Source: Saccharofermentanales bacterium (GTDB lineage: Bacteria > Bacillota > Clostridia > Saccharofermentanales > DTU023). From it: DNA of 64,000 nucleotides. The notes beneath the pieces were generated by a model. The model was not told where the DNA came from. It was given only the letters and a program-made list of their open reading frames with translations, and did not search any database. Made by a program: the position numbers and the translations under genes. This document shows, in pieces, positions 3-12,176 of this stretch. Each line of letters starts with the position of its first letter. The first letter of the stretch is position 1. The stretch is taken from the NCBI GenBank assembly GCA_050951925.1, contig JBMNJZ010000001.1, forward strand, positions 915,015-979,014. Reading direction: 5' to 3'.

Positions 3-827
3 AGAGAGGGCAGGTTCAGAGGCAAGAACTGCGCCTTGATTTTACCTGAGTTCAGTACATATTTCAGGTCGCTTGAGATGCCTCCGATCAGTGAAAAGCA
101 GCTGCGACTCAATCTCCCGTACGAATTCAGAGATTTCGTTGGCAATGAGAGCATAAACTATAATTATGATTACGCAGTTGAAGGCTATGTCACGGACGAG
201 GACGGCAAGGTAACGGCTGTCAGTTTGCTCGCGGCAGCCGCCTCGAAGATAACAATCAAGGAGTATGAGGACCTTCTTTACAGAGCAAGCTTCAGGCTCA
301 AGGTGGCACTGCCGAGAGAGATGGCTCTTCTCAATCTCGTCAGAAAGGCTATCGAAAGGGAAGCTTACGGCGACAGAGTCTCCGTAATAATCGATTTAGG
401 CTTCGCAAACACGAGGGTCTACATACTGCAAGGGGGGGATCTGAGGGCTGCCAAGACGATCGAGATGGGCTGCAGGGACGTGGACAGCGTAATCGCGGAT
501 CATTATAATATCGATGTTTATCTTGCTGCTTCGTACAGGGAGACCGACCATGAAGGGATACTTGAAAGCGATGTCTGCCGGGCGGTATACAACAGAATAT
601 CGCTGGAAGTGATGAAGGCTATAAACTTCTATAAATACGAAAATCAGCAGAGCGAATTCGAGGACTGCTTCATCTGCGGTGACTGCTCGGATACCGAAGC
701 TTTTGTAGACAATATGCTTGCATATGTGCGGCTGGACAAGGCGAATCTGGATGTGATTCTACCCAAAGAATGCAGGGGCCTGAGTGACGCTCCGCGCGCG
801 CTCATGTCCATAGGCGTTACTTTATAG
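3..827 (+). CDS. pilM: Type IV pilus assembly protein PilM-like (actin-like ATPase fold), 5' end outside the window
   Basis: The frame is open from base 3, with no stop upstream of the TTG at 36, so the gene is cut by the window edge. The layout is PilM-like (LPYEFRDFV segment, IIDLGFANTRVYI nucleotide-binding-type motif, C-terminal FICGDCS). It is directly followed by PilN/PilO-like genes. Confidence 0.7.
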   Translation, partial: REGRFRGKNCALILPEFSTYFRSLEMPPISEKQLRLNLPYEFRDFVGNESINYNYDYAVEGYVTDEDGKVTAVSLLAAAASKITIKEYEDLLYRASFRLKVALPREMALLNLVRKAIEREAYGDRVSVIIDLGFANTRVYILQGGDLRAAKTIEMGCRDVDSVIADHYNIDVYLAASYRETDHEGILESDVCRAVYNRISLEVMKAINFYKYENQQSEFEDCFICGDCSDTEAFVDNMLAYVRLDKANLDVILPKECRGLSDAPRALMSIGVTL

Positions 828-839
828 GAGAAGGACTTC

Positions 840-1487
840 ATGGGAAATAAGCCAAAAAAACATAAAGTCTCAAAACTTCCTTCAAAAAAGACCATGAACC
901 TCTATCAGATTGAGATTACCGATAATTCGTGGCAGAGGGTAATACCTTACGCGCTACTGATTATTGTTATTGTGGCTGCATTTGCTCAATTCGGTGTCTT
1001 TCAAAGAATATCGCAACTTAATAAGTTGAGCGAGCAGGTTTCTAAAGCTCAGATTCAGCTTGAGAAGCTCAATAAATCCATAGAGGACTATGATGACGTT
1101 AAGACCGAATATATCAGATATACCGACGATTACATGCTTGAGGAAGAAGGAAAGCTTGTTGACAGGATGAAAATCATCGGTCTGATAGGTGACAAGGTTT
1201 CCAACATAGGAGAAGTCAAGAGCTACGCAATAGCCGATAACACGGTTTCTCTCGAAGTAGTTGTCGATACGCTCGATGATGTTCGCAGGATAAGGAAGCA
1301 GCTTGACGAAGTAGATTGGGTCGGGAACATAACCGTCAACACCGCTACGAAGAGTATTTCTGCCGCAGGTGGGGGCGAGGTAGTCGCTTCGATCGTGTTT
1401 GATGTTATTTACCAGGGCGAGTCTGAGGAGCCGGTTGACGCTTCCGGCACTGCGGAAGCAGCGGACGGAGAGGGGGTTGATGACTGA
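840..1487 (+). CDS. PilN-like pilus assembly protein (bitopic, coiled-coil)
   Basis: 215 aa. It has a basic N-terminus, one TM helix (VIPYALLIIVIVAAFAQFGVF) and a coiled-coil (LNKLSEQVSKAQIQLEKLNKSIEDY). There is a GGAG-type RBS upstream. It sits between the pilM-like and pilO-like genes. Confidence 0.6.
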   Translation: MGNKPKKHKVSKLPSKKTMNLYQIEITDNSWQRVIPYALLIIVIVAAFAQFGVFQRISQLNKLSEQVSKAQIQLEKLNKSIEDYDDVKTEYIRYTDDYMLEEEGKLVDRMKIIGLIGDKVSNIGEVKSYAIADNTVSLEVVVDTLDDVRRIRKQLDEVDWVGNITVNTATKSISAAGGGEVVASIVFDVIYQGESEEPVDASGTAEAADGEGVDD

Positions 1488-2119
1488 TGAATCTGAAGAG
1501 AGAAGTTATGTCGCTTAAAGAGTTGATACTTCTGGGCATATTGATCATCCTCGCAGCATATTATTTCGTAGTGCATGGCCCGATTGAAAAACAGACGGCA
1601 GAGTACGAGAGTAAGCTTGCCGAGATTGATTTAGAACTGCAGATTGCGCAGCAAAAGGCTGTAGAGAAAATTAAGATGCAGGAGTCAATCGACGCCATAT
1701 TTGCCCGATATGACGGTAATCCGCCAATGATACCTGCATACAACAATATTAATTTTATTATGGGAGAGTTAAACGGTATTTTAGGCAATACTTATGATTA
1801 CAATTTATCATTTGGCGCGGAGACGGCGGATGAGAATAATATTAAGATTATTAGAAGACCGATAGCTATTTCTTTCTCGACTCAAAAATATAGTGACGCT
1901 GTAGCGAAAATTAAGACGATTAATGAGTCGGAAAATAAATATTTGATTCAAAATGTTTCTGTTTTTGATTCTGGTGCTAATAGCTCCGTCTTAACCAATC
2001 CGTTTGGCGATCCTGTTAATAGCACTAAAAACAGTGGCAGGTACAATATTGTAATGACCATGACAAGTTTCGAGTACAAGGCGGATGCGCAGGCACCGCA
2101 GGAGGACATATCACAATAA
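1487..2119 (+). CDS. PilO-like pilus assembly protein (bitopic, coiled-coil)
   Basis: 210 aa. Its start overlaps the upstream stop (ATGA). It has an N-terminal TM helix (LILLGILIILAAYYFVV) followed by a coiled-coil. The call rests on architecture and position only. Confidence 0.5.
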   Translation: MNLKREVMSLKELILLGILIILAAYYFVVHGPIEKQTAEYESKLAEIDLELQIAQQKAVEKIKMQESIDAIFARYDGNPPMIPAYNNINFIMGELNGILGNTYDYNLSFGAETADENNIKIIRRPIAISFSTQKYSDAVAKIKTINESENKYLIQNVSVFDSGANSSVLTNPFGDPVNSTKNSGRYNIVMTMTSFEYKADAQAPQEDISQ

Positions 2120-2187: not shown

Positions 2188-2222
2188 AAAGCTTACCGCG
2201 GTTGGCAGCGGTAAGCTTTTTT
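2188..2222. terminator. Bidirectional Rho-independent terminator between the convergent pilO-like and pseudopilin genes
   Basis: A perfect 12-bp stem, aaagcttaccgc (2188-2199) / gcggtaagcttt (2208-2219), with an 8-nt loop, followed by a T-run. Confidence 0.75.
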
Positions 2223-2258: not shown

Positions 2259-2807
2259 CTATCCGTTGAGAATCTCAACCGCGAAATTCTCTTCGGAAAT
2301 AATAATTTGTTCATCTTGCGTCATAACCTGAATGCCGATCTTGAATACCATGAAATTTTGATTCGGTGGAGTTAAATCCCTTTCGGACGCAGTAGTAAAC
2401 TTGGCTTTTAAATCGTAAACATAGGTTTTTTTCGGAACCAAGTCATATTTCCCCTCCGGTGTACTCAGCGTTATGAATCCACTTTCAGCGGGATCACCGT
2501 TTTCATCCGTTATTGAGAAGCTGCAATTTTTAAGAGAATGATTCGTACTAAAAAACTTTAGATCACTCAGGTTTGTTCCTTCAATATTTTTGGCGTAGCG
2601 AAGCTCATTTTTGACCGCAGTAACGAGCGTAGCGCACAAAATCTGCCCTTCCGCCTCCCGGTTAGATTTGTTAAATGAGCGCACTCCGAGATCTATCGCT
2701 AAAGATATGATTCCGGTTACTAATATCAGGAGAACTACCGTAACCAGGAGCTCGATAAGGGTTACACCTTTATTATTTGATTTCTTAACGACATTACTTA
2801 TAGTCAT
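2259..2807 (-). CDS. Type IV pilin/pseudopilin with prepilin leader (Glu+5 present)
   Basis: From Met32 of the track ORF the protein reads MTISNVVKKSNNKG|VTLIELLVTVVLLILVTGIISLAI. That is a short basic leader, Gly-1, Glu at +5 and a hydrophobic helix, the class III signal. The ATG at 2807 overlaps the upstream gene's end by 14 nt. Confidence 0.8.
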   Translation of the reverse strand: MTISNVVKKSNNKGVTLIELLVTVVLLILVTGIISLAIDLGVRSFNKSNREAEGQILCATLVTAVKNELRYAKNIEGTNLSDLKFFSTNHSLKNCSFSITDENGDPAESGFITLSTPEGKYDLVPKKTYVYDLKAKFTTASERDLTPPNQNFMVFKIGIQVMTQDEQIIISEENFAVEILNG

Positions 2808-3117
2808 AAAAATAGTACCCCTCGGATTCATATACATTAAAATCGTACCCCGCGAATTCATCTGCCTCTGTAGAAATATCGAGACTTTCGATAACGGCAC
2901 CAGAGTATTCGACTGTAACTGTAACCTCTTCGGCTATGGGAGCTGTCCTGTCCATCATCGTAGAAATATCTTTTTCCTCAGCCTGTTTGTTGAGTTTAGC
3001 TGCGAGTGTAATAGCAGTAGGAAGCATAATCATTACAAGAACTATGATGAGCAGACTGACCAAAACTTCTATCAGGGTTTCTCCGCGTTTGTTTTTTAGT
3101 TTACTTTTTGTTTTCAT
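2794..3117 (-). CDS. Small type IV pilin/pseudopilin with prepilin leader (Glu+5 present)
   Basis: From Met13 of the track ORF the protein reads MKTKSKLKNKRG|ETLIEVLVSLLIIVLVMIML. A GGAGG RBS lies inside the end of the upstream gene, and the ATG at 3117 is 1 nt after the upstream TGA. 107 aa. Confidence 0.8.
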   Translation of the reverse strand: MKTKSKLKNKRGETLIEVLVSLLIIVLVMIMLPTAITLAAKLNKQAEEKDISTMMDRTAPIAEEVTVTVEYSGAVIESLDISTEADEFAGYDFNVYESEGYYFYDYK

Positions 3118-3118
3118 C

Positions 3119-3850
3119 TCAGCCTCCGCTCGTCTTATTCTTGGTGATAACAAAGTTGTCCCAGCTGATTGTATGAACCACCTTTTGGGTAACGGTTATG
3201 GTCTTAACATTTTTGTTTTCTGTCCGTTCTTTCATTTCGCTTGAAGATGTGACCGGATATGAGGTGGCTTTTAATAAATCCATAGTCATAACCGCTGATG
3301 GCGAAGCATCTTCAATGCCGAAAGTGGTGGTTATTCTCATTTTTTGAGGATTGAACACCATCTTAGCTTCTACGGTTGCTATCTCCGATAAAATGTCGTT
3401 GCAGGTTATAGTGATAGTTAGTTCTGTTTGCGAAGCAGGCGGGTCAATGATTGCTTTTGCCCAGGCATTAAGGACCGCTTGCGGTACTATATTTTTTGCT
3501 GCGATATCATTGTAAACAGCTGGGTCTAATGAAGCTTCGGTCGATGGTGGGCTCTCTGACACCAGCTCATCCCAGTTATCATCATATACTTTCTCAGTGG
3601 TAGTAATGAATGTTTGCTCAAAGGAGATACTATCACCCTCAAGCGCATTTTTGAACATCATAACCGCGGAGCTTACCGCGAGGTAATTTTGTTCCTCGTT
3701 CTGCGTGTTTTTTACACGACCTATGTTGGAAAACGCAGTATAAATCAGAACCGCCGAAATCATGAGGCAAAGAATCAGGGCGACCAAAGCGAACACAATG
3801 GTCGCGCCCTGCTTGGACTGTATTTTATTCTTTAGATTACTTGAATTCAT
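3119..3850 (-). CDS. Minor pseudopilin-like protein lacking Glu+5
   Basis: The N-terminus is MNSSNLKNKIQSKQG|ATIVFALVALILCLMISAVLIYTAF, a basic leader, Gly, then a hydrophobic helix with Phe at +5 instead of Glu. The ATG at 3850 lies inside the last codons of the giant upstream gene. Confidence 0.65.
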   Translation of the reverse strand: MNSSNLKNKIQSKQGATIVFALVALILCLMISAVLIYTAFSNIGRVKNTQNEEQNYLAVSSAVMMFKNALEGDSISFEQTFITTTEKVYDDNWDELVSESPPSTEASLDPAVYNDIAAKNIVPQAVLNAWAKAIIDPPASQTELTITITCNDILSEIATVEAKMVFNPQKMRITTTFGIEDASPSAVMTMDLLKATSYPVTSSSEMKERTENKNVKTITVTQKVVHTISWDNFVITKNKTSGG

Positions 3851-6800
3851 GTAATCTCTCCTGAAGGGAAGTATGGTACTTAAATAGCCATATTCCGCCG
3901 TCTTGGTTTTTTATAATATTCTTGTTAGAGTTATTAAGAATGAATTTATTATTGCTATTGTCAAACAAAATCCTCCAAAAACTTTGGAAAAACAGATTGT
4001 GCATATCGCTGTAGTATTTAGCCCCATAAAGCCCGGGCCCGGATGTTGCACCACAGAAAACAGCATTGGTATTAGAGCCACCTGTAGGTTTTTTTATGTA
4101 TGTCTCGTTATGAGTATTAGAAAGCTTAAGGTATTCCGTGCCTACGCCGTCTGGTACGTCGTTCGTAACATCCCATAGCATCGTATTTTCGCTCACAGGC
4201 GAGGCGAGGTGATAATCATCTCCACCTATGTGCTGAAGATATACTTGTGTCGTAGTAACCGGATTGTCAGACCCGGGCCCGAGTCCGGGCGGCGACTCTC
4301 CGGTCATGCAATAGTATTCCGTGTCGCTTTCTCCTACCACCCTTGCGACAACAAGGTATTTTTCTTCCGTATTGGTAGTCGTGGGAAGCGGATCATCGTA
4401 AGAGGCTCCGCTGACAAATTTCAGATTATATGGTATCTTCCACCTCGCATATAGTTCTATATCCTGTTCCGGATTGATATTAAATTTACCATCCTCTGTA
4501 ATTCCTGCTATATCGCCGTCATCTGTGTAAATCGTTCCGTTAGTATTCAATAGTTTTTTGAGATCTTCACCATCGTAAACATACCAGCCTGCAAAGCTTG
4601 AGCTTGAGTCTAAAAGTGAACCCTTATCACTCATCTCAATATTCAAAGCAGAGAATGATTTATCCGTATTGGTGGATATGAGAGCCGGATCTACACCTTG
4701 ATCGCCGTTATTGTAGAGATAATGGTTATTTATATATTCTTCATTTTCCGTTGCCGTTCCGTCTAAGTTATAATGCTTCAAAATAAGCTTTCCGGTGCAC
4801 CAAAGCGCACGTAAATTGAGTACATTGCTGTCAAAAGTCCTTATATTGCCTTCGCTGTCAATATTAGTCTTATCACGCGCTTCTATTTTCAGTGCCTGAA
4901 CTTTAAAATCAGCATTTCCCGCATTTTGCGCTGTAGCTTCCAGATAGAACGGCGAAGGATCTAATGTGGCCATGGCTCTATAAATGTCTGAACTAAAGCC
5001 AACGGCATTCTCCTCCGGATTGAATTCGAATGTGAATGTCCAATTTCCACTCACCGTCATTTCGTTAGTATTAATCAAGTTATTCCATTGATCCCTCAAT
5101 ATGAGGTTCCAATTTACTGTATCTCCACGTTCCAGCCTCTGCCGTTCTCCCGGGTGCCAAACCTCAGGATTAATCGGCTCTGCCGACAAATTAACTATAG
5201 CGGTGACATCAACTTTTAATGTTGCCATATAATATTTGCCGCTATCTGAATATCTAAAGAGGATTATCGTAGGTGTTTCTGTCTTATCGATACCCGTTAC
5301 GGTAAGTTTGGAAATAATACCCTCGGTTTCGCTTGCGGATATTTCAACCTTGTCGTTGATACTTACGGACGGGTTATCGGCGAAATTAACCCATTCACCA
5401 TTGTCTTTTCTGATTTCAAAATTTAACACTAAAATATCTGTGTAACCGTCGCCGTCAAAAAATTGCACTTCCGTTTCATCGACATAATCGTCAATATCTT
5501 CGCCTGTAACCGCATCTGTATGATAAGAAATTAAATCCAACCCCATTTCGGACTCAGTCAATTCCAAGCGCCTGTTCTTAGGCCATTCGCCGTAGTGGAC
5601 ATATTTTTTGCCGCCCGGATATTCTTGCGTAATTACTGTGGCAAACGGATAGTCCTCACCTTCGAGCGAAGCTTCACCGCAGGGGAAGCTGTAGTTAGCA
5701 GTGACTTTGTGATAAGAATTCTGTGGGGAACCGCTATTCAAGTCATCGCAGAATTGCTGCAGTGACATATCGTCGTATGATTTCGAATTAATGCCGTTAT
5801 CTACCCAACCGGATTCAGCCGATGCTATTATCAGCTGGCCGGTTAGATAATTGTTAGCATAATAATAGCAGTTATTTAACTCGCCGCCTAACTGTTTTGG
5901 CAGTAAATTGTTCTCGTTATAGCATGCGTCACCGCCTATTACGGCAACCTTTACATTGCCTTCAGGCAGGGGTAAATCCATATAAGAATAGCAATTATAA
6001 TATTTCGGGCTTATAAATGCACTCGCCTCCTCAGCATGCATATTTACGGCACTGCATGTAAAGGCTGATGAGGCGATGCCGCTGATATAAATATTCAGTT
6101 GATCGGACTCGGGATAGATAAGAGAATGATTAACAATAACTCTGCCGCCGGAATAACAATTATTTATCTTGGTTTGATTTGTACCCGCGATACCTCCTAC
6201 AGTTATGTTATCTTTATAGCCTGAACCAACACTTGTGCCCCTGTTCCTATCTGTATTGATTCCAATTGTAGTTACGGCAGAGCATCTGTTTATATTTGTT
6301 CTGAGAACGCCTGCCAAGCCACCTATGGTTGCTTCGCCGCAAGAAACCGGCTGATTGCTTTCATCACTAATTTCATAGCCGGCAACCGCACAGTTTTCGA
6401 TCTTGCCATTGTAGTTATCATAGTCATCATCATATTCGTTTGCCATCCCCACTAAGGTGCCGATGGCATAATAGCCCGCAGGGCTTTCTGCAGGACGCTT
6501 AATTACCGCAGGAGTGTTATTTGAGTCCCTGATGAGTACGACATTTTTTATCGTAGAGCTTACAGTTAATCCGAAAACTCCTACCGAATAACAACTTGAT
6601 GTAATAGAAAGGTTCTTGATTTTATAACTTTGACCGTCAAAAGTCCCGCCAAACCAGGCAAAAAACGGTAAGCGGTAGCTCTTTCCCGATGTTTCTCCAA
6701 GGGCAGCGATCGGGGAATAGCTTGTTCTTCTGATGCACTCTATATCATAATCCTGAATGAAGTTCTGTCTTGCCCTTGATTGCCCGAAATCATTCCAGAC

Positions 6801-9800
6801 TTCCGGTTCCGCTTCCGCGTTATAAGTCCAACCTGAAGCATCACTATATTCTATCTGGCTTCCTTTCTTTGTCGCGTGCAAATAAGGGAAATAATTGTAA
6901 TTTGTTCTGCTAATCCGCTGATCACAATTCCTATTAACGCTGTTCCAGTTGATAAACTGCAGTTGGTCGAGTGACCTGATTCTGTATTTATTATTCCCCG
7001 TTCCCGGCTCGTATTGAGGAGCGGGTTGAGTACCGGCGTTATTCCATGTGTTCCAACCTGTGAGCTTTATTGATTTGGCGAAGAAAGGACAGAAAGTATA
7101 GTTTAGCGGATCGTCCTCCCCGGCTGTTAAAGTCACGGTAGCATTCTGCACATTCCCCGTCATGAACATATAGTTATCTTTATACAGGCGGCCATTAGCA
7201 TCAACGCCATTAGTTTTATATGAGGTAGCAAGATTAGTTTCATCACAAGTGGTATAGCAATAGAACTTATAGCCTGGATAGTTTTCATTAAAATATGAGT
7301 CGGCGGAAGCGTTTGTGGTTACAGGGTTGGTTGCAGATACATTCACATTCAGCCATGATACATCTAAGGCGTATGTTTCTGTGCCGCCGCCTTTTTTGGC
7401 AACATAATACCCATAGCCGTATTCTTTGACGATTCCTCCGGTGTTATGCGCCGTGCTTGTGGTGTTATGGTAAACCGCCTCGTATTCTCCGCCTTCGCCA
7501 TTTTTTCTGCCAACCATATAGATCTTATATCCCTGACCCTGAGCAGAGCCTCCAGTAACTTTTTCCCAGTAGAACAGACCGGCCTTACCGTATTCAGGTT
7601 CCTCTTCCGATATCGGCGGCAACCAATCGCCATAATGAGGGAGACCTTCTATTGATACATACGGGTATATGACAAGAAGCTCAAGGTTTTCTTTTTGATT
7701 GTTTTGATTATATGGATAGGTGTCAAACTCGTTTTCGTCGTCCGAAAAAGGACTTCCCAATAAAGTGGCAGCAGCTGCATTAGATGTGAATTCATATTTT
7801 TGAGAATCTTCTAGCTTATTATCTTCGGATCCGAAATAGTAGACATTCTGTACCGTTGTTGCGTCCGGCGCTGTACTGTATATGTGAGTCGCCTGTGACT
7901 CGGAACAGTTAAAGAGCGAATATGAATTGGTTATACTTGAAATGTTGTTGGGAACAAAGCCCGCTGCCGAATCAATTATGCCTTCGGCTAAACCGGTTTT
8001 CATTATTCCGAAACCTGCGGAGTATGAGCCTGAAATAGAGGATCCGGCAGTAAGTGCACCTGCCAGTCCGCCTATCTTGGAAGTCGATGCGCCTCCGATA
8101 AGGTATGAGTCAGCATACGAATTCTGTATTATAGCACTGCCGTTTGTTTTGCTGCCTATCAGACCGCCAATCGAGCCCGTTCCTTCGATGATCGTTGCGG
8201 CAAAGCTGTTTTGAATGGTTAACGTGGAGTCTGTCGAACTGCTGCCTACGAACCCGCCGACATTGGCAGTGCCTTTCAATAAGATATTGTCCGCATAGGT
8301 GCTTTCGGATGCAAAGTATTCTTTCTCAATATAAAGTCGGCAGTCTTTTATTGTAAGGTCTGAGGTGGTTCTTCCCGCCAGGCCGCCTACGTCCGTGCCG
8401 CCTTCTATCTTTTCGTTAACCAATGTAACGCCGGAAATATTAGTTCCTGCAAAACTCCCAAACAACCCCGCCGGTTCGGAGCTGTTGCCGATATGCATAT
8501 TAATAATTTTGAACGAGTCGGCAGCAGGCGGGGCAATATAGCCCGAATATGTCATTAAAGACGAGTTGTTGATCGGCGTGAATGTTTTATCTCCGTAAAT
8601 TGACTTCCAGAGGAACGGCTTTTCGAGAGACCAATTATCATCAGAAACATCGTTAAAGTCTATATCCGAAATCTGTTTTGCGGAGGTAATGGCATTCGCC
8701 GGCAAGCGTGAAGTTGATATGTTAAGATTCTGCAGATGTCTGCCATACGCTATATTGGCTTCTGTCGGGTTCTCCGGATTTAATGACGCGAATAAACTGT
8801 TTGTAGTTCTTTCTATCGGGCCTACGTCCGGAACACTGTTGTCGCTGCTTGAGACAGTAAATGATAGTTCTAAGTCTTCGCCCGGAATGAGAGCGCCTGT
8901 CCTTGGCTCTGCATAATCCGGTTCCCATGTTATAGCGCCGAAAGTGTCTTTGAAGTATTGACTTTGATTGGTTTCGGGGTCGACGTCAAGCTTATCAAGT
9001 ATAACGGACGCAGAAAATACTTTAGTTACTGGATCCGGGGTGACGGTCTGCAGGAGAGTGACTGTATTACCGCTTGTTTTTCCCTTAACTGCAAGCTTAA
9101 ATTCCAGATCACTTATATCAGAATCAGAAGGAAGAATCGCAGTCATATTCGCTTGCAAAATATCGGCATTGATGACATTCAGCGAGGCGTTGATCATATT
9201 GCCGCTTACATCCGCGGGCATATTCGCTTTGCCGCCGTAGTAGCCTATTTTATTATTCCCTTTCAGGCTATGCCTGGGATCCTTGAATCTTATCGAAGAA
9301 TCCCCGTTTAGCGTTTCATCGTTATCAATGTAATAATTGCCGGAAGATCTTTTTTCCGAGTAAAATGCCGAATAGACATATCCGGTAACAGGGTCAAATT
9401 CAATGACCCAATTATCATCACGTACATCCCCATCAATGCTTCCTGGAGGAAAAATAAAATCGACCAGGTCACTTGGAGTTGAATTACCAGGATTGTCTTT
9501 GTCGTGATAAAAATATTTTAAGTTACCAGGATTTACCGCAGCAGTGTCTTCTCCCCAATCGGCCGGTTTGACGTCGACTTCTCCAAGTTCTGTGGCCGTT
9601 AATAAGCTGTCTATTCCTCCCGATGCTTTTAACTCCTTAATTCTGTTCTGCGCGCTGACATACATGCTCTGGGCTATGTTGTCCAGCTTTGTTTGATTGA
9701 TACGGTCAACCAAGCCTTGAATGCCAATAAATGCGACACCGAGAAGAATCACTACGATCGCAACAACGATGAGTGTTTGAATCAGCGTTAAACCTTTTTT

Positions 9801-9833
9801 ATTTTTTAACTGGCTGTCAATTCTTGTTTTCAC
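3837..9833 (-). CDS. Giant (1998 aa) modular protein with a type IV prepilin N-terminus, two GLUG-like repeat blocks and a Listeria-Bacteroides-type repeat
   Basis: GTG start at 9833 with GGAGG 7 nt upstream. The N-terminus is MKTRIDSQLKNKKG|LTLIQTLIVVAIVVILLGVAFIGI (Gln at +5). The ORF is uninterrupted for 5994 nt. There are GG-hydrophobic-x-G repeats at aa ~440-650 and ~1060-1330, and FAGWYVYDGE...DIELYARW at aa 1747-1798. Confidence 0.85.
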   Translation of the reverse strand: MKTRIDSQLKNKKGLTLIQTLIVVAIVVILLGVAFIGIQGLVDRINQTKLDNIAQSMYVSAQNRIKELKASGGIDSLLTATELGEVDVKPADWGEDTAAVNPGNLKYFYHDKDNPGNSTPSDLVDFIFPPGSIDGDVRDDNWVIEFDPVTGYVYSAFYSEKRSSGNYYIDNDETLNGDSSIRFKDPRHSLKGNNKIGYYGGKANMPADVSGNMINASLNVINADILQANMTAILPSDSDISDLEFKLAVKGKTSGNTVTLLQTVTPDPVTKVFSASVILDKLDVDPETNQSQYFKDTFGAITWEPDYAEPRTGALIPGEDLELSFTVSSSDNSVPDVGPIERTTNSLFASLNPENPTEANIAYGRHLQNLNISTSRLPANAITSAKQISDIDFNDVSDDNWSLEKPFLWKSIYGDKTFTPINNSSLMTYSGYIAPPAADSFKIINMHIGNSSEPAGLFGSFAGTNISGVTLVNEKIEGGTDVGGLAGRTTSDLTIKDCRLYIEKEYFASESTYADNILLKGTANVGGFVGSSSTDSTLTIQNSFAATIIEGTGSIGGLIGSKTNGSAIIQNSYADSYLIGGASTSKIGGLAGALTAGSSISGSYSAGFGIMKTGLAEGIIDSAAGFVPNNISSITNSYSLFNCSESQATHIYSTAPDATTVQNVYYFGSEDNKLEDSQKYEFTSNAAAATLLGSPFSDDENEFDTYPYNQNNQKENLELLVIYPYVSIEGLPHYGDWLPPISEEEPEYGKAGLFYWEKVTGGSAQGQGYKIYMVGRKNGEGGEYEAVYHNTTSTAHNTGGIVKEYGYGYYVAKKGGGTETYALDVSWLNVNVSATNPVTTNASADSYFNENYPGYKFYCYTTCDETNLATSYKTNGVDANGRLYKDNYMFMTGNVQNATVTLTAGEDDPLNYTFCPFFAKSIKLTGWNTWNNAGTQPAPQYEPGTGNNKYRIRSLDQLQFINWNSVNRNCDQRISRTNYNYFPYLHATKKGSQIEYSDASGWTYNAEAEPEVWNDFGQSRARQNFIQDYDIECIRRTSYSPIAALGETSGKSYRLPFFAWFGGTFDGQSYKIKNLSITSSCYSVGVFGLTVSSTIKNVVLIRDSNNTPAVIKRPAESPAGYYAIGTLVGMANEYDDDYDNYNGKIENCAVAGYEISDESNQPVSCGEATIGGLAGVLRTNINRCSAVTTIGINTDRNRGTSVGSGYKDNITVGGIAGTNQTKINNCYSGGRVIVNHSLIYPESDQLNIYISGIASSAFTCSAVNMHAEEASAFISPKYYNCYSYMDLPLPEGNVKVAVIGGDACYNENNLLPKQLGGELNNCYYYANNYLTGQLIIASAESGWVDNGINSKSYDDMSLQQFCDDLNSGSPQNSYHKVTANYSFPCGEASLEGEDYPFATVITQEYPGGKKYVHYGEWPKNRRLELTESEMGLDLISYHTDAVTGEDIDDYVDETEVQFFDGDGYTDILVLNFEIRKDNGEWVNFADNPSVSINDKVEISASETEGIISKLTVTGIDKTETPTIILFRYSDSGKYYMATLKVDVTAIVNLSAEPINPEVWHPGERQRLERGDTVNWNLILRDQWNNLINTNEMTVSGNWTFTFEFNPEENAVGFSSDIYRAMATLDPSPFYLEATAQNAGNADFKVQALKIEARDKTNIDSEGNIRTFDSNVLNLRALWCTGKLILKHYNLDGTATENEEYINNHYLYNNGDQGVDPALISTNTDKSFSALNIEMSDKGSLLDSSSSFAGWYVYDGEDLKKLLNTNGTIYTDDGDIAGITEDGKFNINPEQDIELYARWKIPYNLKFVSGASYDDPLPTTTNTEEKYLVVARVVGESDTEYYCMTGESPPGLGPGSDNPVTTTQVYLQHIGGDDYHLASPVSENTMLWDVTNDVPDGVGTEYLKLSNTHNETYIKKPTGGSNTNAVFCGATSGPGLYGAKYYSDMHNLFFQSFWRILFDNSNNKFILNNSNKNIIKNQDGGIWLFKYHTSLQERLHEFK

Positions 9834-9976
9834 GGTGTACCTCCGCTATTCAAACGGCATTGACGGTTTAGTTCACTTGGCCTAGTTATAAAACTATTAT
9901 AATTATAATTGTTTGCATTATAAAATATTGCAACCGGTCTGTCATGTACGAATCCCTATTGCTCAATGTTTGGGCA

Positions 9977-10109
9977 CTTGAGTTTTGCGCCGTTGCGCTT
10001 CTCTAGGTCTGCCAGCAGTATTTAAGTGCGAGCCTCTAAAATAGATACACTCATCAATGCTGGATCTTATGTCCATGCTAGCATAGAAACGGCGCAAATT
10101 AAACTCAAG
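9977..10109. repeat. 18-bp inverted-repeat pair flanking a 93-bp segment, upstream of the pilin operon
   Basis: The left arm cttgagttttgcgccgtt (9977-9994) is the exact reverse complement of aacggcgcaa (10088-10097) plus aactcaag (10102-10109). The right arm carries a 4-nt insertion (atta). Confidence 0.85.
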
Positions 10110-10277
10110 GGTTCCCTCTCAAAGCAGGAACGACATATTTGGTATAAAAATGGTACAAAACAGCCGAAAGCGGGTAAGAAATCTAAAAGCAAAACCCGCT
10201 GAAATATCTATGTTCCAACGGGCTCGGACTTGGCATCGTACAATAAAATGAATACAATCCACTTGAAAGTATGTCGT

Positions 10278-10354
10278 GGGTGCATTTGGGTGTATTTCTG
10301 AAAACCGGGTGCACCGCTCAGTTTAGGGTGCATTCATTGTTGCAACAAGGTGCA
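10278..10354 (+). repeat. Array of five direct GGTGCA-type repeats plus a 12-bp palindrome
   Basis: GGGTGCA occurs at 10278, 10307 and 10326, GGGTGTA at 10288 and AGGTGCA at 10348. The spacings are 10, 19, 19 and 22 bp. The third copy is part of the palindrome GGTGCACC (10308-10315). ttgttgcaacaa (10337-10348) is a perfect palindrome. Confidence 0.8.
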
Positions 10355-10381
10355 TGGGCAGTATATGCCGATTCTGCTTCT

Positions 10382-11704
10382 TTATAGCAGATTGTCAATC
10401 TCCTCAAGCAGGAACGGGATGATTCCCACATAACTGATGCCATTTTCATCTGTGTGCATTTTTGCATTACCGCCTGTTACTACAAGTTTTCTAAATGAAT
10501 CCCCGCTTTTTAGGAGAGGAAGAATTTCTTGCTGATGTTTTTCCGCATCATGGATGCTGAAAGCGGACTGTATGTAGACCTTTTGGTTTCCCCTATTTAC
10601 TACAAAATCAATCTCGTGCCATCGTTCGGGGAGCAGCCTGCCAGCCACGGTTTTTGTAAAACGTACGGAACCCACATCTACCGCAAATCCACGAAGCACC
10701 AATTCATTATGCAAAATATTTTCCATCAAGTGAGTCTCTTCAATCTGTCGAAAATTCAGCCTGGCGTTTCGTAAGCCAACATCTTCCGCATAGTATTTTA
10801 CAGGAGAATTAAAATATGTCTTCCCTTTCACATCGTAGCGCCTGACTTTGGTAAAAAGAAACGCATCCTCTATCGCATCCAGGTATTTCTTTACGGTTTT
10901 ATCTGTTGTGCCCGCACGGCGAACTGAGTTTAAGGTGTTTGCCAGCTTTGATGGGTTAGTCAGGCTGCCAACATTGGAAGCCAGCACATCCACCAGGTCA
11001 TTCACATATGAGTCCGCCACCCGGTATCTTTCCGCAATATCAGCCACATATACTCGCTCAAACAAACTGGACAAGTACGCCTCTCTCTCCCTTGGGTTCT
11101 TTTCCAGCACGGCAAGCGGCATGCCGCCATACACCAGGTATTCTTCCCAGGCGTCCGCCTTTTCCATATCAGAAACGGAATAAAATTCTGCAAAGCTGAA
11201 AGGGTGCAGGCGTATTTCAATGCCTCTGTCACGGAAGTTGGTGGCAACGTCCTTGGACAGCATCTTGGAGTTGCTTCCGGTCACATAAATGTCCAAATTG
11301 CGTCGGGTCATCAAATCGCTGAGGATGTCGTAGAAGGTGGTGTATAGCAGTTCCCGATCTTCTTCAGGCACCTGACTTTCATCCACATCTAAGCGCTTGA
11401 CCTTGTAAGAGAGCTGAATTTCATCAATGAACAAATAAAACTGTTTGTTTCTACTTTCAATTTTTTCAACAACATACTGATGCAGGGTATTAGGGTTGCG
11501 CATGGCTTCATACTGTTTCTGGTCCAGCGCAATCTCAATGATCTGGCTGTCATCTATGCCTTGCTGATGAAGGTATTCTTTGAAAAGTCGAAACAGCAAA
11601 AATGACTTTCCGCAACGGCGTATCCCAGTAATGATTTTAATTCGACTATTGTGCATCATACTAATGAGACGCTTCAAAGGTCGCTCTCGATCAATGACTT
11701 TCAT
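10382..11704 (-). CDS. AAA+ ATPase of the AAA_14/DUF4143 type (function unknown)
   Basis: 440 aa. It has a Walker A GIRRCGKS near the N-terminus and a Walker B-like LFIDEIQ. The C-terminal half is typical of the widespread 'ATP-binding protein' family with a DUF4143 domain. There is an AAGGAG RBS upstream of the ATG. Confidence 0.75.
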   Translation of the reverse strand: MKVIDRERPLKRLISMMHNSRIKIITGIRRCGKSFLLFRLFKEYLHQQGIDDSQIIEIALDQKQYEAMRNPNTLHQYVVEKIESRNKQFYLFIDEIQLSYKVKRLDVDESQVPEEDRELLYTTFYDILSDLMTRRNLDIYVTGSNSKMLSKDVATNFRDRGIEIRLHPFSFAEFYSVSDMEKADAWEEYLVYGGMPLAVLEKNPREREAYLSSLFERVYVADIAERYRVADSYVNDLVDVLASNVGSLTNPSKLANTLNSVRRAGTTDKTVKKYLDAIEDAFLFTKVRRYDVKGKTYFNSPVKYYAEDVGLRNARLNFRQIEETHLMENILHNELVLRGFAVDVGSVRFTKTVAGRLLPERWHEIDFVVNRGNQKVYIQSAFSIHDAEKHQQEILPLLKSGDSFRKLVVTGGNAKMHTDENGISYVGIIPFLLEEIDNLL

Positions 11705-11718
11705 AAGGACTCCTTATG

Positions 11719-11821
11719 ACGGATTTCATCGATAGTCGATAAAATCCGTACTTAAGGTATAATTTTACACCATTGTTATTTTCTGCGCAAACCGGATTTC
11801 ATCGAGACTCGACGAAATCCG
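11719..11821 (-). repeat. Two related ~30-nt perfect or near-perfect hairpins/palindromes in the ATPase leader
   Basis: Copy 1 is at 11719-11749 (acggatttcatcga tag tcgataaaatccgt). Copy 2 is at 11793-11821 (cggatttcatcgag a ctcgacgaaatccg). The single mismatch in each becomes a G-U wobble only when read on the minus strand. Confidence 0.7.
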
Positions 11822-12099
11822 TCTTGATGACATAATAAAACCTGAAATGAAGATATCGGAGTAAGCATTTCCGACAACCACACTTTCTACTGAAAAAACC
11901 TGCTTAAAACGAGAAAAAATCAACCAGAAACAGAACCGACCCTGTGTTAGCTTGCTCACATTCAGATTATCGAACAATTCGTAATCGAAAAGTGCAAAAT
12001 TATAAAGCTGCAAGATGTTGAGACTACCGGTTTTCATGGTTTCAACATGAATGAGGGTGCCCAATTCACTTAATAAAGTGTTTTGAGACACCCCCGACT

Positions 12100-12176
12100 T
12101 GGTGGGTGGTAGTGGAGTCGAACCACCGACCCCCTGCATGTCACGCAGGTACTCTAACCAGCTGAGCTAACCACCC
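12100..12176 (-). tRNA. tRNA-Val (anticodon GAC), CCA encoded
   Basis: The reverse complement folds by hand as a cloverleaf: acceptor GGGTGGT/ACCACCC, D-arm GCTC..GAGT, anticodon stem CCTGC/GCAGG with loop GTGACAT, T-arm GGTGG TTCGACT CCACT, and 3' ACCA. Confidence 0.9.

Follow-up and report, generated by a model that had tools for sequence, protein, structure and literature searches.

A putative minor-pilin operon with a giant modular pilin beside the type IV pilus genes of an uncultured Clostridia bacterium

The four-gene operon and its pilus machinery

The stretch of DNA analysed here (64,000 nucleotides (nt), hereafter the window) comes from a Saccharofermentanales bacterium (GenBank assembly GCA_050951925.1, contig JBMNJZ010000001.1, positions 915,015 to 979,014 of the forward strand) and carries, at 2259..9833, four consecutive open reading frames (ORFs) on the minus strand. 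The product of each opens with a class III (prepilin) signal, that is a short polar leader up to a Gly and then ~20 residues of hydrophobic helix. The first gene encodes a giant protein of 1998 amino acids (aa) (3837..9833; KKG/LTLIQ, the slash marking the predicted cleavage site) and is followed by the genes of a 243-aa protein (3119..3850; KQG/ATIVF), a 107-aa protein (2794..3117; KRG/ETLIE) and a 182-aa protein (2259..2807; NKG/VTLIE). Direct reading of the sequence confirmed the residues that the original prediction had given for the fifth mature position (+5), namely Gln in the giant, Phe in the 243-aa protein and Glu in the two small ones. On the Pfam N_methyl profile the giant, the 107-aa and the 182-aa proteins share a single register, with the Gly at profile position 6 and the +5 residue at position 11, so that the cleavage-site assignment is consistent across these three proteins. 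The cut-off of this profile is passed by the 107-aa (E=1.1e-6) and the 182-aa (E=1.5e-5) proteins; the giant matches it weakly (E=0.025) and the 243-aa protein does not match it. A six-frame motif scan of the 64-kb window found no prepilin-like N-terminus besides these four.

The four genes form a transcription unit of their own, one tightly coupled operon. The end of the giant gene and the start of the 243-aa gene share 14 nt, the start codon of the 107-aa gene is one base past the stop of the 243-aa gene, and 14 nt are likewise common to the end of the 107-aa gene and the start of the 182-aa gene. The giant ORF has a GTG start codon after a GGAGG ribosome-binding site, and its leader, MKTRIDSQLKNKKG, is followed by LTLIQ. 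By consensus scan only, we recognised a promoter-like site (ATGACA-17-TATAAT, 11/12 positions; 9917..9945, minus strand), about 85 nt upstream of the giant start codon, and a terminator-like hairpin (12-bp stem and then a T-run; 2188..2219, minus strand) 3′ of the 182-aa gene, between this operon and the convergent pilMNO operon. The identical locus is present in six independent metagenome or genome assemblies (L001-L006), and for L001 the identity with the window is 100% across 11,487 bases. The closest genomes were assembled from metagenomes and carry the labels Saccharofermentanales, Oscillospiraceae, Lachnospiraceae and Clostridiaceae (Clostridia, Bacillota), and the host is an uncultured member of the Clostridia near Saccharofermentanales.

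The pilMNO genes lie on the plus strand at the beginning of the window. The first one (36..827) is cut by the window start and encodes the C-terminal 263 residues of PilM (Pfam PilM_2, E=4.7e-7; TIGR01175, E=3e-13); the full-length PilM has 329 aa in L001, and a tblastn search of it against the window gave 100% identity over residues 56-329. The second (840..1487) encodes a bitopic membrane protein of 215 aa, considered as PilN-like because its gene separates pilM from the pilO-like gene and because it has a single N-terminal hydrophobic helix; it gave no significant Pfam match, and its position is kept in the related loci L007, L013, L015 and L016. The third (1487..2119) encodes a PilO/GspM-like protein of 210 aa with a weak match to Pfam T2SSM (E=0.019), which was also obtained at the orthologous positions in L007, L013 and L014.

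The original prediction held that a major-pilin-like gene, an extension ATPase, a platform protein and a prepilin peptidase were missing from the window and might lie upstream of pilM, and this was borne out on both counts. Precisely, tblastn searches of the window for PilB, PilT, PilC, PilD and the major pilin gave chance matches only. Long contigs reaching beyond window base 1 were then recovered by a look-up with the PilN-like protein, and on these contigs, among them L001, the genes of PilB (T2SSE+MshEN), PilT, PilC (T2SSF), the major pilin and PilD (peptidase A24) are directly upstream of pilM, in a stretch 0.2-5.7 kb before window base 1. The order is therefore PilB, PilT, PilC, major pilin, PilD, then PilM-N-O and then the convergent four-gene operon. 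The upstream major pilin has 121 aa and keeps Glu5 (G/FTLME).

Residue +5 and the architecture of the four subunits

Glu5 is absent throughout the family of the 243-aa protein. Phe5 is present in 48/48 close homologues, and a profile search of 1.84 billion representative proteins gave 2,405 relatives, the best 147 signal-bearing of which have at +5 Phe (74), Leu (28), Met (18), Ile (17), Tyr (6), Val (3) or Ser (1), and never Glu, Asp or Gln. The N-terminal 65 positions of the NCBIfam model T2SS_GspK were matched weakly by 12/12 aligned members of the family (best E=1.9e-5). In the AlphaFold2 model of the 243-aa protein (predicted local distance difference test, pLDDT, 68) an N-terminal helix is followed by an all-beta domain. 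Judging from these sequences, the conserved Glu5-less capping subunit is most probably the 243-aa protein, as a K-type subunit (GspK/ComGG analogue), and not the giant; it would act like a K subunit from outside the GspK equivalog family.

Many database entries of the 243-aa homologues (P0058-P0074) begin at an internal Met (MVFALVAL..., 230 aa) and so lose the cleavage site and a leader (MNSS.LKNK..S..GAT) whose protein sequence is conserved. These internal-Met starts are an artefact of gene callers that hides K-like class III signals from motif-based searches.

For the giant we gathered homologues with its first 395 residues, using first a single-sequence and then a profile search. After correction of mis-registered cases, all but two or three of the 93 homologues with a readable N-terminus have Glu5 (~97%), and Glu makes up at least 90% of the +5 column in the alignment of the N-terminal module. 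Glu5 is lacking in P0002 (LTLIQ), which shares 71% identity with the window protein, and in P0008 (FTMSG). The Gln codon of the window giant is CAA (9777..9779, minus strand), in the place of which most orthologues have GAA or GAG; among six full-length giants, CAA is found in the window and in L008, and GAA or GAG in L009, L010, L011 and L012. Hence Gln5 occurs in this family only in the window species, L008 and P0002, and the original prediction, which took it as the mark of a tip position, did not survive the comparison with about 90 of 93 homologues and 4 of 6 full-length orthologues that carry Glu. Glu5 appears, from these alignments, to be ancestral and almost universal in the giant family, and Gln5 to be a recent single G-to-C change in a few close relatives rather than the mark of a capping position. 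At most, it would indicate that the salt bridge is dispensable for the giant in this lineage, which fits a position in the tip complex without diagnosing it.

A sequencing error was rejected as the source of Gln5: the locus is identical in six independent assemblies, and Gln is also found in L008 and P0002. In a poorly resolved neighbour-joining tree of the six full-length giants (bootstraps 50-83) the two Gln5 sequences are not sisters, and Gln5 may have arisen once or twice. The L008 giant (L008:4036 onward), the other Gln5 orthologue, has also Pro at +4 (G/LTLPQ). In P0008, a cluster of 160 member sequences, the residue is Gly5 (AG/FTMSG) while near-identical relatives have Glu (FTMSE), and this could be either a second independent loss of Glu5 in the giant family or a sequencing variant.

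The giant begins with a conserved N-terminal module (aa 1-395; 8649..9833, minus strand) made of the class III signal, a long N-terminal helix, a small beta-sheet and an immunoglobulin (Ig)-like sandwich. In the AlphaFold2 model of residues 1-400 (pLDDT 68) these correspond to a helix at 17-71 (55 residues), strands at 141-159 and a sandwich at 215-345, and the conserved motifs of the module are AAQNR, WVIEYDP..G.VY.VFYSE, IGYYGG, LIPGEDI, TNSLFA and YGRHLQNL. Past the module there is a passenger of ~1,600 residues (~180 kDa) with two regions of GLUG repeats. Four stretches matching PF07581 were found within the slice aa 301-700; the best-scoring motif of this first region (aa 587-607; 8013..8075, minus strand) has E=4.1e-5 and 24.1 bits against a cut-off of 20.5, and the motif of the second region (aa 1209-1232; 6138..6209, minus strand) has E=1.1e-3 and 19.7 bits, just under the cut-off. 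Homologues of the giant carry precomputed PF07963 and PF07581 annotations. A stretch near residue 1,750 (FAGWYVYDG...ELYARWK) resembles by eye a Listeria-Bacteroides repeat, without Pfam confirmation.

Full-length orthologues of the giant were recovered via the adjoining 243-aa gene in five metagenome-assembled genomes (L008-L012); they have 1,730-2,122 aa and 56-63% identity over ~2,000 aa. Conservation is highest in the N-terminal ~700 aa (mean identity 0.64-0.77) and lowest in residues 1400-1700 (0.31-0.42), a gradient such as would be expected if the carrier part is conserved and the distal part freer to vary. An internal duplication was rejected, as BLAST of the giant against itself gave nothing at E <=1e-3. 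A beta-propeller of the PilY1/PilC type was searched for on the whole giant and on seven overlapping slices, and Pfam gave no match to it at E up to 10. The giant fits the published definition of a modular pilin, that is a pilin N-terminus joined to a domain not specific to pili, here GLUG (PMC8179133); in the literature nothing relevant was found on pilins with GLUG motifs.

Of the two small proteins, the 107-aa one has as best NCBIfam matches ComGE (2e-5) and ComGF (5e-5), all under the curated cut-offs, and in a seven-sequence alignment of its family both Glu+1 and Glu+5 are invariant. Glu+1 was found in the pilin of this type in nine loci (window and L007-L014), in the forms G/ETLIE, G/ESFAE, G/ETLAE and A/ETLVE, and in the window its codon is 3079..3081 (minus strand). 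Mature pilins do not usually begin with an acidic residue, and this one might neutralise an N-terminal amine inside the tip bundle. The 107-aa protein is a candidate I-type subunit. An alignment of seven sequences of the 182-aa family, both orthologues and distant homologues, shows no variation at Gly-1 or Glu5, a profile search of the family against PDB sequences matched only the pilin N-terminal helix, and the protein is a candidate H- or J-type subunit.

A module made of a large pilin and of genes for proteins of ~205-245, ~100-120 and ~160-205 aa recurs beside pilMNO in nine related or distant loci, L007-L014 among them. In every locus recovered with flanking sequence the gene of the large pilin either directly follows pilMNO or converges on it, and on contigs that extend far enough the K-like, the I-like and the third small minor pilin adjoin it. 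The order is ~2,440-215-102-181 aa in L007, 673-231-103-158 aa after pilMNO in L013 and 205-122-204-673 aa in L014; in these three loci the K-like protein has at +5 Met, Leu and Phe, respectively, and Glu5 is kept in the large pilin. A single subunit of the four is without Glu5 in L009-L012, L013 and L014, and the same holds for L007 except for an Ala at -1 of the I-like protein. At the level of the family, the sequences thus point to one conserved Glu5-less cap (the 243-aa type) accompanied by three partners that carry Glu5, among which is a very large modular pilin.

Some of these loci have features of their own. In L007 (4915-12251) the loss of one nucleotide from a short G-run breaks the gene of the distant giant homologue into two ORFs, of 493 and 1952 aa (junction at ~6350-6400); P0009 reads through the site (LSSKKGDLADIETVDSPEKVKPWLEGKVVGGLIG), and P0005 and P0010 are frameshifted. 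Possible readings of the split are an error of assembly, a pseudogene and phase variation; intact, the protein would have ~2,440 aa. In L014 (8028-17425) the K-like, I-like and third small pilin genes precede the 673-aa large pilin, past which there are two proteins with ordinary Sec-type signals, of 1247 aa (with a faint Flg_new match) and 639 aa. We considered whether the giant was a fusion of a ~673-aa pilin with such downstream secreted proteins, and rejected it, the 1247-aa and 639-aa proteins being without similarity to the giant. The L016 cluster (3391-11521) includes PilB, PilC, a pilin, PilD, PilM-N-O and the large pilin, and no PilT; it is 1.7 kb from a Rep3-type plasmid replication gene (683-1654), and the pilus locus may be plasmid-borne.

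A probable tip complex with a putative fused adhesin, and its alternatives

Within type IV filaments the N-terminal amine of a subunit is paired with Glu5 of the one below it, and the known caps without Glu5 are GspK, PilK/PilX and ComGG (PMC10191384, PMC10790768). There is exactly one such capping subunit in each published complex of the H-J-I-K and ComGD-GF-GE-GG kind (PMC10790768, PMC10191384). We consider it probable, at roughly 0.65, that the minus-strand genes belong to a retractile type IV pilus and make up an H-J-I-K-like minor-pilin operon, in which one member is a giant modular pilin and the 243-aa protein is the cap.

From conservation, gene context and domain matches we infer how such a complex would form. 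The 243-aa protein would go in first and be topmost, where a K-type cap needs no Glu5 because there is no subunit above it. The 107-aa protein would be the small I-type subunit, and the H and J positions would be taken, either way round, by the 182-aa protein and the giant's pilin module. The N-terminal module of the giant (~360-400 residues) would insert into the base of the tip complex, and the remaining ~1,600 residues, with the two GLUG regions, an Ig-like domain and the variable C-terminal third, would project past the tip and are probably an adhesin. The display of the giant at the tip, which the original prediction had proposed, is still likely, on grounds of size and gene context and not of Gln5, because a ~1,600-residue passenger cannot pack repeatedly along a filament. 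What stands of that proposal is the likely set of four minor pilins for a priming or tip complex, which the coupled operon and the recurrence of the module by pilus machinery support; the use of Gln5 as a sign of the tip does not.

One could instead place the giant itself at the apex, in the position of GspK, with Gln5 as its mark. This would account for Gln5 in the giants of the window species, L008 (LTLPQ) and P0002, as well as for the Pro4 of L008, which together with the lack of Glu5 is also found in the degenerate signal of Streptococcus sanguinis PilA (PMC9934059), and a passenger of ~180 kDa is hard to place except at a tip. We hold it very unlikely, since with Glu5 in the homologues and in 4/6 orthologues a non-Glu residue is not a property of the family, the subunit that is universally Glu5-less is the 243-aa protein of the same operon, and in published models only the topmost subunit can do without Glu5 (PMC10191384, PMC10790768). 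It is also unlikely, if less sharply so, that the class III signal of the giant serves for membrane insertion and processing only, the protein remaining anchored as a surface adhesin or secretion-related protein, either in the cytoplasmic membrane or on a short pseudopilus and not in long pili, and the loss of Glu5 reflecting its non-polymerising state. A 2,000-residue protein could alone span a Gram-positive wall, and the variation at +5 (Glu or Gln, and Gly in P0008), with the Pro4 of L008, suggests that in some lineages the polymerisation interface is less constrained; but Glu5 is retained, along with a canonical N-terminal helix, by ~97% of the family, conservation in the giant peaks over its first 100 residues, and its gene is strictly syntenic and translationally coupled with those of three other minor pilins, beside a complete machinery in which PilT, the retraction ATPase, is present.

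Two further possibilities give Gln5 a role, or a tolerance, of its own. Gln5 might modulate the dynamics of the pilus (in a study of Vibrio cholerae TcpB, Glu5 was reportedly needed for retraction), or it might be tolerated where Glu+1 of the I-type subunit neutralises its own N-terminal amine and makes the Glu5 of the next subunit redundant. The invariance of Glu+1 in the 107-aa family in nine loci agrees with this, as do the Glu/Gln changes in the giant, which are without visible compensating change in the other three N-termini. We find it hard to favour, however, as Glu+1 is equally present where the giant keeps Glu5 and so does not co-vary with Gln5, and as the idea is built on inference and on an assumed order of the subunits. 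Only slightly better placed, and still quite improbable, is the reading of this lineage as having a tip complex with two Glu5-less subunits, in which Glu+1 of the I-type subunit neutralises the amine and renders Glu5 of the giant redundant, as an alternative scheme of charge neutralisation. If this were true, a pilin of ~2,000 residues (up to ~2,440 in relatives) could act as a fused equivalent of PilY1.

Several results weigh against the H-J-I-K-like operon with the 243-aa protein as cap. In the window species and in L008 Glu5 is missing from both the 243-aa protein and the giant, hence from two subunits of the four, where a canonical complex lacks it in exactly one. The match of the 243-aa protein to GspK (NF037980) has 19.2 bits against a cut-off of 130 and aligns residues 14-77 with positions 2-65, hence the N-terminal helix only, and its model has no GspK-type alpha-domain; indeed none of the proteins here reaches the cut-off of a curated NCBIfam family. 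Foldseek searches of the PDB with the models of giant residues 1-400 and of the 243-aa protein (both pLDDT 68) gave generic Ig, lectin and beta-sandwich matches with low template modelling scores, and no GspK, GspI, GspJ or pilin structure was among them. Moreover, we know of no established activity of the GLUG motif, so that it gives no functional cue for the passenger of the giant. Typing of the subunits as H, I, J or K by structure was attempted and set aside, as no assignment follows from models of this confidence and from generic matches. Sequence and profile searches of PDB chains with the giant and with the 243-aa, 182-aa and 107-aa families matched only the pilin N-terminal helix (geopilin, PilE1) or by chance.

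Among known systems, the H-J-I-K sets (GspH/I/J/K of type II secretion; PilH/I/J/K or FimU/PilV/W/X of type IVa pili; ComGD/GF/GE/GG of Com pili) are like the present one in having four minor pilins in one operon by the machinery, one of ~100 residues and one that is Glu5-less family-wide, here with a weakly GspK-like N-terminus; the single Glu5-less subunit of L009-L012, L013 and L014 agrees with them as well (PMC10790768). They are unlike it in their gene order, since canonical operons end with K and here the order is large, K-like, I-like and third small pilin, and in the absence of a ~1,600-residue passenger on one member.

The pilus of S. sanguinis is, like this one, that of a monoderm (Gram-positive) bacterium and has a small Glu5-less minor pilin with bulky modular pilins (PMC8179133, PMC9934059). 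There the Glu5-less subunit is the small PilA, and the modular PilB and PilC keep a canonical Glu5, as does most of the family of the giant, and are modelled at the tip (PMC9934059); modular pilins have been argued to be tip-exposed, and in S. sanguinis the small Glu5-less partner is added first (PMC8179133, PMC9934059). It differs in having three minor pilins instead of four, a 15-kDa I-like PilA instead of a K-like protein of 243 aa, and single vWA or lectin modules of 300-400 residues instead of ~1,600 residues with GLUG and other domains, and the searches of PDB chains detected no sequence similarity to PilA, PilB or PilC.

PilY1/PilC of diderm type IVa pili and TadG/CpaL are also very large, modular, adhesin-like proteins that go with a minor-pilin initiation complex, presumably at the tip (PMC13533445). 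PilY1/PilC, however, docks via a C-terminal beta-strand (PMC13533445), whereas the adhesin here would be fused to the pilin module, and no beta-propeller was recognised in it by Pfam. The Caldicellulosiruptor tapirins offer a functional analogy only and are not described as pilins in the part of the source consulted (10.1101/359786); the giant gave no match to PDB chain sequences, among which the crystallised tapirin domains are assumed to be present.

Large modular minor pilins with GLUG motifs add an uncharacterised family to the known subunits of pilus tips. The family comprises at least 90 sequence clusters, and its gene calls range from ~670 aa (complete genes in L013 and L014) to ~2,100 aa, or ~2,440 aa if the split gene of L007 is joined. 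The largest modular pilin in a 2021 survey has 860 residues (PMC8179133), and pilins of the giant type are more than twice as large. Because the large pilin adjoins pilMNO and small minor pilins in the recovered loci, the data suggest that many uncultured Clostridia of anaerobic digesters display very large adhesins on their pili via a fused pilin carrier. They also call for caution in that a missing Glu5 in one sequence is not evidence of a tip position: the loss must be family-wide to signal the tip, and therefore the 243-aa protein qualifies and the giant does not. In our view the main interest of the locus is in the size and breadth of the large-pilin family and in the invariant Glu+1 of the I-like subunit.

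Neighbouring features

Upstream of the minor-pilin operon the window encodes an AAA_14/DUF4143 ATPase of 440 aa (10382..11704, minus strand), which is in the same place in L001-L006; its gene has its own terminator-like hairpin (10225..10192) and no evident link to the pilus. Further on, a transfer RNA gene, tRNA-Val (GAC) (12100..12176, minus strand), overlaps a listed 124-aa ORF (11765..12139), which is for this reason probably spurious. The G+C content is 0.41-0.445 over ~2-12 kb of the window and 0.46-0.58 over the following 12-26 kb, and a tRNA-flanked boundary between regions of differing composition is possible near 12 kb.

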